A stretch of 64,000 bases of DNA from a virus (Duplodnaviria; Caudoviricetes), in IMG/VR virus record IMGVR_UViG_3300033414_000001, positions 14,919 through 78,918 of that record, one strand, 5' to 3'. Below are positions 34,226-36,790 of this stretch, piece after piece; within the stretch, counting starts at the first letter, position 1, and every line of letters begins with the position of its first letter. A program made the translations under genes and the position numbers. Below the pieces are notes generated by a model, which was given only the letters and a program-made list of their open reading frames with translations, did no database searches and was not told the origin of the DNA.

Positions 34226-34696
34226 ATGGACATGCCCGCCGACATCTCCGCTCACTTCTCCGCCGTCGAAGTGGTCACCACGGCTCAGCGCGATCTCGTT
34301 CCGGAGCAGATGCGCATCTGGAATGGCACGCTTGCGATCCGGACGAACGCGAAGCGCCACGCCATCCTCATGGAGAAGATTCGCAACGTGCTCGGAGTTC
34401 CGCTACACGTCAACTCCTGGTATCGTTGCCCGACGCTGAATGCGCGCGTGGGCGGCGTCACGAACAGTCGTCACATGCTGGCGCTGGCCACCGATTTCGT
34501 TCCGATCGGCATGACGCTCGACGATGCAATGCGACGGATCTCTTCTGCGGTACGTCGGGGCGAGTTGCCAGAGCTGGACAAAATCATCATCGAGTGTGGT
34601 GCCTGGATCCACGTACAGAGCGCGCTTGACGGAACGGGACCGAGGCTGCTGTGCCTCAAGTCGGAGGACGGAGAGCGCTTCGAGCGCTACGTCTAG
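34226..34696 (+). CDS. endolysin, peptidase M15A family
   Basis: SWYRCP.LN..VGG...SRHM..LA.D and WIHV Zn ligands. Confidence 0.9.
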   Translation: MDMPADISAHFSAVEVVTTAQRDLVPEQMRIWNGTLAIRTNAKRHAILMEKIRNVLGVPLHVNSWYRCPTLNARVGGVTNSRHMLALATDFVPIGMTLDDAMRRISSAVRRGELPELDKIIIECGAWIHVQSALDGTGPRLLCLKSEDGERFERYV

Positions 34697-34698
34697 AG

Positions 34699-35061
34699 AT
34701 GCCGTCGCGCGCACTCATTCTTCTGGGGAGCTTCGCTGTCGCGCTGGCCGCCGCGCACGCGGTCGCTGATCCCGGCGCCGCCGCACTCCCTGCGGTCGAT
34801 GCGCTTGGACCGCTCAAGGCGGTGGCGGCGTTCCTCCAGACCTTCGGGTCGCTCGGGTTTGCTGTCGTGGCCGGCTGGTGGGGTCTCAAGAAGGACAAGG
34901 AGACCAAGGATCTCACTGTACGTTACGAGGCTCAATCCCAGGCTACGTACAATCAGGCGGTGGGGTTGGTGAAGACCATGACGGAGGCGTTGGTGAAGAT
35001 GGAGGCCACCGTTTCGGCGCTCCGCGGCGTGATCGAATCCATGGAGCGAAGGCTGGAGTGA
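34699..35061 (+). CDS. holin-like membrane protein
   Basis: Signal/TM segment, a second TM ending WW..KK, then a coiled coil. Confidence 0.65.
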   Translation: MPSRALILLGSFAVALAAAHAVADPGAAALPAVDALGPLKAVAAFLQTFGSLGFAVVAGWWGLKKDKETKDLTVRYEAQSQATYNQAVGLVKTMTEALVKMEATVSALRGVIESMERRLE

Positions 35062-35068
35062 GACGGTC

Positions 35069-35416
35069 ATGAATCTCTCTCGCCATCGATCGCCGCATGT
35101 CAGTATCGGCGATCTCCTTGTGGAGCTGGGACTCATCACGCAGGAGCAGTTGATTCGGGCAATCGAGACGAAGTTGCGGTCGACGCCAGGGCAACTCATC
35201 GGGGAAGTCCTGATCGCACAGGGCGCCGTCACCCGATCTCAACTGGAACGCGCGCTGTCGCAGCAGAGACGAGATAGCCCACCAGTCGAGGAGCTCCATC
35301 GCAAGACGCGAGATCTGCTTGCGAAGGCGAGCGATAGCGCGGAAACTTTGCATCGGCAGATCGACAACCTCACGTTACGCATGCAACACATGGTTTCGGT
35401 ATCGGACAGGCAGTAG
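35069..35416 (+). CDS. MshEN (GSPII_N)-like domain protein with coiled coil
   Basis: Tandem motifs SIGDLLVELGLITQEQLIRAIETK and LIGEVLIAQGAVTRSQLERALSQQ. Confidence 0.8.
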   Translation: MNLSRHRSPHVSIGDLLVELGLITQEQLIRAIETKLRSTPGQLIGEVLIAQGAVTRSQLERALSQQRRDSPPVEELHRKTRDLLAKASDSAETLHRQIDNLTLRMQHMVSVSDRQ

Positions 35417-35438: not shown

Positions 35439-36275
35439 GTGAAGACATTCTCGCTTCGCATTGGGCTCATCGCGGCAGGGCTGCTCGTCCTTCTCTTCGG
35501 CGCCGTGGCGCTGGCGCAGGCGACCGGCGCGCCGCCTGCGGACCCGCTCTCCCTCATCTCCATTCTCGTTTCCGCGGCCCAGGGTCATCAGTGGGGCATC
35601 GTCGCGGGGGTGGCGCTGTCCGGGCTGACGTACGTTCTGCGGGCATGGGTGATGCCCGGCTGGAAGTGGGCGCAGACCGATCGCGGAGGCGTTGCCCTGG
35701 CGCTCGCGGTTTCCGTCGCCGGCACCGTCTCCACGGCGCTTCTGTCCGGCACAACCTCCTGGTCCGTGCTCCTCGATGCGGTCGCGGCGTTGCTCCTGTC
35801 GTCCGGCGCCTATTCGGTCGTCAAGAAGACGGTGGCCCCGTCCGATGTCGCGAAGGGTCTTCTCGTGTTCGTCTTGCTGATCGGCGCCGACTCCGCTCGC
35901 GCTGACGGTCTCGTTGCGCCGGCCTTCGGCGGCTGCAGGGACACGACCTGCTACGGCCCTTCGGTCTCGCTGTCCGTGCTCGCGATCTCGCTCAAGGATG
36001 GCTCCGTGTCGACGCTCGCGCTCCCGGGCCTCGGTTACGGAGCGACCTGGCGAGCCGACAAGTGGTACCGGTACGGCGTCAGCTCGCACTTCTCGCTGCG
36101 GAGCACCTCGGACGGACAGCGCCCGCAGGTAGCGATCGTCGGCTCCTTTGCCGAGTACCTGCGCTTCGGGCTCGCCCAAGTGGTAGGAGGAGGCGGAACG
36201 ACTCGGGAGCGGACCTCGATCCTGGTGTCGTTCGGAGCCGACTTCGGCGGATCTCCCGCCGCTTCGAGTCCGTAA
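35439..36275 (+). CDS. holin-like multi-pass protein fused to a predicted beta-barrel domain
   Basis: AGGAG RBS with GTG start; signal peptide, ~4 TMs, a second signal-like segment (SARA-D) and an amphipathic beta-strand C-terminal half. Confidence 0.65.
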   Translation: MKTFSLRIGLIAAGLLVLLFGAVALAQATGAPPADPLSLISILVSAAQGHQWGIVAGVALSGLTYVLRAWVMPGWKWAQTDRGGVALALAVSVAGTVSTALLSGTTSWSVLLDAVAALLLSSGAYSVVKKTVAPSDVAKGLLVFVLLIGADSARADGLVAPAFGGCRDTTCYGPSVSLSVLAISLKDGSVSTLALPGLGYGATWRADKWYRYGVSSHFSLRSTSDGQRPQVAIVGSFAEYLRFGLAQVVGGGGTTRERTSILVSFGADFGGSPAASSP

Positions 36276-36279
36276 GCTC

Positions 36280-36660
36280 ATGATCGCTCTTCTCGTTGGT
36301 CTCGCCTTGGCTCTGGCCGCCAGCAGTATCGCGGCCGGGGTCCAGGCGGTCCGAGCGGCATCTCTCGCGGCAGACCTGAAATTGGCAACGGCCAGAGCCA
36401 ATGAACTGACGCAGGCCGTTTCCGATGCCGCAGAAGAGCGACTCGTTCTCGTGCATCGATACGAGGCCGCAGTCGCCGACCTCAAGCAAAGCGTTGTGGA
36501 GCTGGAGGGCCTGATCGATGCGCACGCTGATCCCGAGCTTGTTCGCGCTCGCCTGCGCGAGCTGCTGTCCGGTGAAGCCTCTTCCGGAGCCACGCCCAAT
36601 CCAGGAGTGCCTGGTGCCTCCTCCTCCGCCACGGCCGCTCATCCTCGGATCGGGGCCTGA
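36280..36660 (+). CDS. i-spanin (Rz-like)
   Basis: Single N-terminal TM plus coiled coil; overlapped by a lipoprotein gene. Confidence 0.75.
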   Translation: MIALLVGLALALAASSIAAGVQAVRAASLAADLKLATARANELTQAVSDAAEERLVLVHRYEAAVADLKQSVVELEGLIDAHADPELVRARLRELLSGEASSGATPNPGVPGASSSATAAHPRIGA

Positions 36661-36790
36661 CGCAGGGTGCCCAGCGCCATTCACCATCTGCTACAGCGCT
36701 TCCGAGTCCATCGCGCTCGCCAGATACATCGCGGCCATGCAGCGGTGGAGCTCGGAGGCGGCAGCGCGTTGCGGGGCGATCCCGAAATAG
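36518..36790 (+). CDS. o-spanin (Rz1-like) lipoprotein
   Basis: Lipobox-like LACAS-C, Pro-rich, overlapping the i-spanin in another frame. Confidence 0.75.
   Translation: MRTLIPSLFALACASCCPVKPLPEPRPIQECLVPPPPPRPLILGSGPDAGCPAPFTICYSASESIALARYIAAMQRWSSEAAARCGAIPK

Follow-up and report, generated by a model that had tools for sequence, protein, structure and literature searches.

Among c-di-GMP receptor modules, MshEN is one of the two most widely distributed, and it is known from cellular ATPases, glycosyltransferases and regulators. What, then, is a protein with two MshEN-type motifs doing among the lysis genes of a phage, and does it still bind the nucleotide? The protein is encoded in a 64,000-nucleotide stretch of DNA (the window) from the complete genome (78,918 bp, direct terminal repeats, 66% GC) of an uncultured phage. 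A first-pass annotation had described a 115-aa open reading frame with two tandem 24-residue motifs and a C-terminal coiled coil, had placed it in a lysis cassette between two holin-like genes, and had proposed that it could tie lysis timing to host c-di-GMP or developmental state, or could interfere with pilus and secretion motors. The open reading frame exists as described, on the plus strand, and starts 7 nt past the stop codon of the gene upstream. The features of the region are as follows:

34226..34696, plus strand: endolysin (Peptidase_M15_3); Pfam PF08291, E 2.4e-12; phrog_894 endolysin, E 2.3e-22
34699..35061, plus strand: partner gene 'TMcc', 120 aa from ATG; candidate holin-like or lysis-regulator membrane subunit
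35069..35416, plus strand: 115-aa stand-alone MshEN_N-like protein with a long C-terminal helix, judged by HMM, profile and fold tests
35102..35173, plus strand: motif I (residues 12-35, S-I-G...K), from alignments with MshE and PilF
35195..35266, plus strand: motif II (residues 43-66, L-I-G...Q), from alignments with MshE and PilF
35285..35410, plus strand: long amphipathic C-terminal helix (residues 73-114) predicted by AlphaFold2; candidate coiled-coil contact for the partner tail
35439..36275, plus strand: 278-aa protein, second holin candidate; 4-5 hydrophobic helices and a beta-rich C-terminal part (hydropathy scan)
36280..36660, plus strand: i-spanin-like gene; TM at residues 1-19, coiled coil; weak match to phrog_2466 Rz-like spanin (E 0.0064)
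36518..36790, plus strand: o-spanin-like ORF, Pro-rich, in another frame and overlapping the end of the i-spanin gene; assigned by architecture only

All of these genes lie on the plus strand in the order M15 endolysin, TMcc partner, 115-aa gene, 278-aa multi-TM gene and spanin-like pair, and the set is a lysis cassette of a phage of a diderm host, as implied by the spanin-like genes in the window. The lysis-cassette position given in the first-pass annotation is correct, with the M15 endolysin on one side of the 115-aa gene and the spanin-like pair on the other. Its flanking holin-like genes do encode membrane proteins, with one hydrophobic helix upstream and 4-5 downstream, but neither product matched a holin family. 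A hydropathy scan found no hydrophobic segment or signal peptide in the endolysin. Promoter and terminator signals scanned for in the cassette stayed at chance level, and none stood out. The annotation had also brought up myxobacteria, a link that found no support: an IMG/VR pattern scan and scans of species genomes returned no relatives and no prophage host.

The 278-aa protein had no family match in Pfam, PHROG or NCBIfam, and its gene is not kept beside the gene pair in the other loci that we compared (named L and a number below). After its 4-5 hydrophobic helices come a second signal-like segment and then the beta-rich part. The sole similarity of its N-terminal part is a weak one (E 0.03) to a 183-aa signal-plus-TM protein (L099:2489-3040), which likewise stands in a lysis-like row. 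The o-spanin-like assignment of 36518-36790 uses position and Pro-richness only; this ORF had no NCBIfam match, and of the Cys residues after its hydrophobic leader (LFALACASCC) none is in a canonical lipobox.

Residues 12-66 of the 115-aa protein are, by profile matches and predicted fold, a true MshEN_N domain. Specifically, NCBIfam NF053729, a curated 53-position model named 'cyclic di-GMP-binding domain-containing protein, MshE-related' (c-di-GMP_motif), matched residues 13-66 along model positions 2-53 of 53 (E 1.5e-14; 53.5 bits vs a cut-off of 38). A phmmer search against all PDB chains returned only the N-termini of PilF (2.2e-9), MshE (5HTL N-domain; 4.5e-5) and PilB (5ZFR; 2.5e-4), and a profile of the family N-domain reached PilF at 2.1e-15 and PilB 5zfr at 1.3e-10. 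The tandem motifs noted earlier are thus borne out by NF053729, by the PDB profile and by the fold matches described below; they occupy residues 12-35 and 43-66 and are separated by a spacer of 7 residues. Within them, the glycines G14, G21, G45 and G52 are kept at the positions of MshE G11, G18, G40 and G47, and the hydrophobic residues I13, L28, I32, I44, L59 and L63 are kept at MshE L10, L25, L29, L39, L54 and L58; most of these glycine and hydrophobic positions are invariant or nearly so in the family. The leading Arg is replaced in both motifs, by S12 in motif I and L43 in motif II, as the annotation had recorded. It had missed the Lys (K35) that stands in place of the closing Gln of motif I, and the spacer length of 7 instead of 5 residues; motif II keeps its closing Gln (Q66).

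AlphaFold2 predicted helices at residues 13-19, 25-37, 40/44-50 and 56-69, followed by a long helix at 73-114. Residues 1-72, folded with ten orthologues, gave a predicted compact four-helix bundle (pLDDT 84.9), and the full-length model reached pLDDT 81, with about 80 for helix 73-114. For the N-domain model, the best 8 PDB matches in Foldseek were all c-di-GMP-bound MshE or PilF GSPII-B (rmsd 1.1-1.7 Å). VIA-align superposed the same model on 5HTL (MshE with c-di-GMP) with Z 10.5 and 1.7 Å over 60 residues; the scores were about 10 for PilF GSPII-B, 8.0 for the XpsE N-domain, 7.0 for that of X. citri PilB, and at most 5.3 for unrelated chains. These MshE and PilF matches appear only when the N-domain is folded alone. 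With the full-length model, Foldseek found nothing in PDB or BFVD, and a wide VIA search gave generic coiled coils only, from the tail helix (Z ≤5.9).

The first-pass annotation had proposed an HMM search for MshEN/T2SSE_N, and the outcome was divided: NF053729 scored above its cut-off, and Pfam PF05157 (MshEN/T2SSE_N) had no match to the protein at E up to 1, nor any in the whole phage genome. Beyond residue 69 the full-length model is a single helix without strands, so that the α/β subdomain is absent. Since PF05157 is not matched and nothing but one helix follows residue 69, the 115-aa protein is, as modelled, the MshEN_N subdomain alone plus a tail helix. A full MshEN/GSPII domain is ruled out by the same two observations. 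DUF4388/PatA_N (PF14332) was also rejected as an identity, at 20.2 bits vs a gathering threshold of 25 and with a match covering motif II only. The protein has no hydrophobic segment. Its predicted tail helix is 42 residues long and amphipathic; the C-terminal coiled coil of the annotation therefore stands as a long amphipathic helix, with only partial heptad periodicity.

An exhaustive HMMER search of 1.84 billion representatives returned 1,576 matches at E <1e-3, most of them cellular proteins that carry several repeats of the MshEN type. Alignment along the whole of the 115-aa protein was seen for about a dozen proteins (110-146 aa), and a profile search enlarged this rare family to about 24 clusters, all on high-GC phage-like contigs. 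NF053729 matches 24/24 family members. The family carries its own version of the motifs. The first residue of motif I is S, T or N and never R in all 23 members that include motif I, and its last residue is an invariant K in every member aligned there. Motif II begins with L except in the P0134/P0157/P0160 subclade, where R is found, and closes with an invariant Q. The 7-residue spacer is present in every member, and a basic N-terminal tail ahead of the domain is conserved.

These features were compared with 611 motifs from the 137 nearest non-family proteins. Among the related motifs the first residue is R in 29%, P in 20%, K in 18%, L in 16% and S or T in 4%, and the last is Q in 80% and K in 2%; the spacer between related motif pairs is 5 residues in 44% and 7 residues in 12%. 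Because of these frequencies, the L of motif II and the 7-residue spacer are, in sequence terms, ordinary variants, and the S/T…K form of motif I is rare but fixed in the family.

A distant member, P0163 (L099:776-1446; 58% GC), is likewise encoded in a pair, whose genes overlap by 4 nt. The gene upstream of it encodes a short N-terminus, one hydrophobic helix and a helical tail, and lies beyond HMM detection. The module may be much wider than the about 24 clusters found by sequence, since the L099 pair is kept even though its membrane partner can no longer be recognised by HMM.

With regard to the neighbouring gene, the partner (34699..35061) begins with a signal-like segment, which is followed by one hydrophobic helix that ends in WWGLKKDKE and by a helical tail of ~55 aa. 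A homologue of it lies directly upstream of the homologue of the 115-aa gene in 10/10 independent loci (blastp 1e-13 to 1e-23); L002, in which the gene call of the partner is merely truncated, is counted among the ten. The contigs of these loci are phage- or prophage-like and of 66-74% GC. Intergenic gaps are -4, -4 and -4 (an ATGA overlap), 1, 3, 5, 7, 20 and 22 nt. As a negative control, the partner gene was found in 0/80 metagenome loci with generic MshEN-motif genes, and its absence from all 80 makes the linkage specific to the phage family. The pairwise divergences of the two proteins are correlated (Mantel r 0.67, p 0.0016), with equal means of 0.60. The correlated divergence is compatible with co-evolution, but would be expected of any co-inherited neighbouring genes.

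The partner had no family match in Pfam, PHROG, NCBIfam or PADLOC. In the ESM Atlas, the named cluster closest to it is the BhlA holin family, at 0.85; a score under 0.9 serves as a lead only. Like members of the BhlA family (PF10960), the partner is small, with one hydrophobic helix and a charged helical C-terminal tail; unlike them, it has no match to the family HMM, and BhlA comes from Bacillota whereas the partner comes from phages of 66-74% GC, with spanin-like genes in the window. In several homologues the hydrophobic helix is marginal by Kyte-Doolittle. The predicted topology has the N-terminus outside and the C-terminus inside, because the Lys/Asp-rich cluster and the tail come after the hydrophobic helix. 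No charge complementarity was seen between the tail helices of the partner and of the 115-aa protein. The gene 3' of the pair is not conserved and often encodes a small single-TM protein.

How regularly does the pair lie among lysis genes? Seven loci were informative (the window, L001, L003, L007, L009, L011/L013 and L015). Four of them have a wall hydrolase no more than about 1.1 kb away, and in two it is directly adjacent. Outside the window, the adjacent gene in L001 encodes a 282-aa protein that has a hydrophobic stretch at its N-terminus, carries a GLMQID motif and matches SLT below threshold (E 1.5e-3); in L009, an SLT gene (E 1.2e-9) follows 1.1 kb, or three genes, downstream of the pair; and L011 and L013 have a DUF5675 gene (E 7e-17) two genes upstream. 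DUF5675 has been grouped structurally with C82-like peptidases among candidate lysins (bioRxiv 10.64898/2026.04.11.717860). No wall hydrolase could be clearly recognised within ~1.5 kb of the pair in L003, L007 and L015. Lysis genes thus accompany the pair often, but not always. The first-pass annotation had suggested a synteny check in related lysis cassettes, and its outcome differs between the two kinds of neighbour: the partner was found in every one of the ten loci, and a wall hydrolase near the pair in the four named above, out of seven that were informative.

Lysis-like genes also precede the pair in L011 (4053-5655) and L013 (2761-4363), where the row consists of a 2-TM gene, a 1-TM gene, the DUF5675 gene, a 174-aa N-terminally anchored gene and then the pair. 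The phage of these loci is temperate, with integrase, Gam, Rad52-like and ParA genes and a ParE/RHH toxin pair. Since other holin-like genes precede the lysin in L011, the pair may here be accessory, and not itself the holin, in a lysis set that otherwise looks complete.

From this evidence we propose, with confidence that is evenly balanced, that the 115-aa protein is the cytoplasmic partner in a two-gene lysis-control module. It would form the soluble cytoplasmic half, and the predicted one-pass membrane protein encoded just upstream, whose long helical tail would face the cytoplasm, would form the other. The four-helix MshEN_N head (residues 12-69) would derive from the N-terminus of a PilB/MshE-type ATPase. 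The 42-residue tail helix would pair with the cytoplasmic helix of the partner, and this pairing would tether the head at the inner membrane face. There the head could influence whether, and at what time, the partner or the adjacent multi-TM protein makes the membrane permeable to the signal-less M15 endolysin, so that the 115-aa protein would act as a holin cofactor or a cytoplasmic antiholin. That the two proteins interact physically, that they affect lysis and in which direction they do so are inferences.

Several observations bear on the antiholin class. The gene stands in a lysis cassette beside a gene for a holin-like membrane protein, as genes of that class do. Gene linkage and co-divergence are compatible with holin binding or gating, and the obligate, often overlapping linkage to the partner in every related locus gives indirect support to an antiholin-like role. 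Searches of Pfam, PHROG and NCBIfam showed no sequence similarity of the pair to known holin or antiholin families, and PADLOC had no match for the pair and hence no sign of a defence system. LydB of phage P1 is one example of a cytoplasmic antiholin. Another, and the nearest functional precedent, is T4 RIII (PMC8385771). T4 RIII resembles the 115-aa protein in being a small soluble helical protein that is encoded with lysis genes and is thought to act on the cytoplasmic part of a lysis protein (PMC8385771); it differs in acting on the short N-terminal cytoplasmic segment of the holin T, and the two share no sequence or known fold relation.

It is possible, though doubtful, that the protein is also a true c-di-GMP sensor, with a head that binds the ligand as MshE does, a ligand that alters its action on the membrane partner, and lysis that tracks host c-di-GMP. 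Much of the binding site is kept. Eleven of 14 ligand-contact positions are the same as in MshE or conservatively replaced: I13, G14, D15, L28, I32, I44, G45, E46, L59, L63 and Q66, equivalent to MshE L10, G11, D12, L25, L29, L39, G40, D41, L54, L58 and Q61. Among them are Q66, the six hydrophobic positions without exception, and the two glycines that contact the guanine edge through their backbone NH groups. The three altered contacts are S12, K35 and L43, in place of MshE R9, Q32 and R38. Changes of MshE Arg9, Asp12 or Gln32 cost at most about a fivefold loss of affinity, and a change of any conserved hydrophobic residue costs more than tenfold (Wang et al., PMC5013675). The caution about ligand binding in the first-pass annotation was justified, but its reason, the lost Arg residues, was incomplete, since affinity depends more on the Gly and Leu positions (PMC5013675), and those are retained in the phage protein. 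XpsE, a non-binder, has changes at many more positions, G11V, G40L and L54H among them (PMC5013675). In addition, PilF GSPII-C binds although its spacer has 7 residues and its second Arg is replaced by Pro. A phosphate could still be within reach of K35, and the conserved basic N-terminal tail resembles the Lys5/Arg7/Lys8 patch of MshE. The model also lies nearer to ligand-bound binders (1.5-1.7 Å) than to the N-domains of XpsE and X. citri PilB (2.6-2.8 Å).

Against a sensor, both stacking Arg residues and one Gln are lost, and the loss is fixed family-wide (apart from the R retained at motif II in one subclade); an S or T in first place and a K in last occur in just 4% and 2% of the related motifs. 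Ser, Thr and Asn are classic helix N-cap residues. Position 12 with its S, T or N lies immediately before the predicted helix 13-19, and its side chain would engage the backbone NH groups of G14 and D15, whose MshE counterparts contact guanine, as judged from the DSSP string only. A precedent exists in PilF GSPII-A, a non-binder with Ser at a leading-Arg position and non-Gln closers (PMC12002112). When the consensus was put back in GSPII-A, the domain still did not bind, as its site is blocked by an extended, N-capped helix α1 (PMC12002112). Furthermore, the α/β subdomain that supplies Asp108 is absent, helix 3 is predicted from residue 40 in the full-length model, one turn ahead of G45, and the phage encodes no GGDEF domain. 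The phage protein thus mixes features of PilF binders and non-binders, and sequence alone cannot decide between them; c-di-GMP binding by the MshEN_N-like head is, from alignment and model, less likely than not. K35, R56 and R61 are invariant in the family and exposed hydrophobic residues are conserved, which suggests that the groove binds something, be it a nucleotide or a partner helix.

The more specific combination of the two ideas, a nucleotide-gated antiholin in which the head would bind c-di-GMP or a related dinucleotide and the tail helix would lock or release the cytoplasmic coiled-coil tail of a new one-pass holin, seems to us unlikely. If it were true, burst timing would follow the sessile (high c-di-GMP) or motile (low c-di-GMP) state of the host, and the system would be the first of its kind and widespread in high-GC environmental phages.

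Two further readings can be considered, both much less probable. Proteins that target PilB are made by other phages. The 115-aa protein could accordingly be a membrane-tethered mimic of the PilB/MshE N-terminus that interferes with type IV pilus or type II secretion motors, for instance to exclude superinfection or to halt the pili once infection is advanced. The decoy idea was already raised in the first-pass annotation, and we regard it as having a slim chance of being right. Of single domains in the PDB, the one matched best is indeed the PilB N-terminus 5zfr (i-E 3.4e-10), which likewise has a 7-residue spacer. However, the gene lies among late and lysis genes rather than at early or moron positions, the family signature departs from PilB at exactly the conserved ligand positions, and a decoy would need no obligate membrane partner.

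It is equally improbable that the pair has nothing to do with lysis and is a late membrane module (for virion assembly, DNA ejection or immunity) that stands in the cassette by accident. Some of the loci would fit such a module: in L015 the pair is directly followed by Laminin_G_3 tail-fibre-like genes, in L009 it is preceded by a gene with a weak tape-measure match, and a recognisable hydrolase nearby is missing from L003, where a PG_binding_1 gene lies 4.4 kb away, and from L007, where nothing lysis-like was recognisable near the pair. The wall hydrolases close to the pair in four of the seven informative loci (within about 1.1 kb, and directly adjacent in two) argue for lysis, as does the window itself, in which the pair occupies the usual holin/antiholin place between endolysin and spanin-like pair. 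Even in L015, the gene fragment that opens the contig weakly matches endolysin PHROGs (E 2.5e-4). A nucleotide sponge (Acb2/Tad-like) was set aside, since a sponge needs neither a dedicated membrane partner nor a position in a lysis cassette.

Returning to the proposed two-gene lysis-control module, its soluble half is a known domain in a new architecture and context, as comparison with the cellular proteins illustrates. With MshE of Vibrio cholerae (5HTL, PMC5013675) it shares the tandem 24-residue motifs, the 4-helix bundle and the Gly/Leu framework, at 33-38% identity. It differs in being stand-alone and phage-encoded, without the α/β MshEN_C subdomain or an ATPase, in its spacer of 7 rather than 5 residues, in its added long C-terminal helix, and in the obligate linkage of its gene to that of a membrane protein. 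PilF of Thermus thermophilus (6F8L, 8PDK; PMC12002112, PMC11731258) is the best PDB sequence match. The likeness extends to GSPII-C, a c-di-GMP binder whose spacer is equally long and whose motif II likewise does not start with Arg, and to GSPII-A, a non-binder with Ser at one of its leading-Arg positions and closers other than Gln; the PilF domains, unlike the phage protein, are full GSPII domains inside a hexameric ATPase.

Full-text searches of the literature on MshEN in phages or holins and on antiholins and c-di-GMP found no paper describing such a protein or an antiholin with a second-messenger domain. What we describe is a cut-down MshEN that occurs alone in phages, with its gene tied to that of a membrane protein in lysis cassettes. 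Should the pair control lysis, it would represent a new system of the holin/antiholin type; should the head still bind a nucleotide, phages would here, for the first time, be seen to time lysis directly by a second messenger of the host. The fixed S/T/N…K and L…Q signature also offers a natural experiment on which MshEN contacts are dispensable, and the module is small (two genes, about 235 codons) and therefore easy to test.

Other small genes recur around the pair. A family of small, very basic, Cys-containing proteins is encoded directly upstream of the partner in four loci (L001:447-716, L002:3-347, L003:4211-4699 and L007:5276-5638), and a second basic family 1-2 kb downstream in three (L001:3092, L003:6392 and L007:8146); no gene of these families was seen in the window. 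At one further locus (L097:6001-6602) the partner is intact and the MshEN-like gene has an internal deletion, with its first ~25 residues fused in frame to the next gene. The fusion target is the usual downstream neighbour (compare L011 6313-6513); genes for a resolvase and a Fic protein are found nearby, and the locus looks like a decaying prophage remnant.
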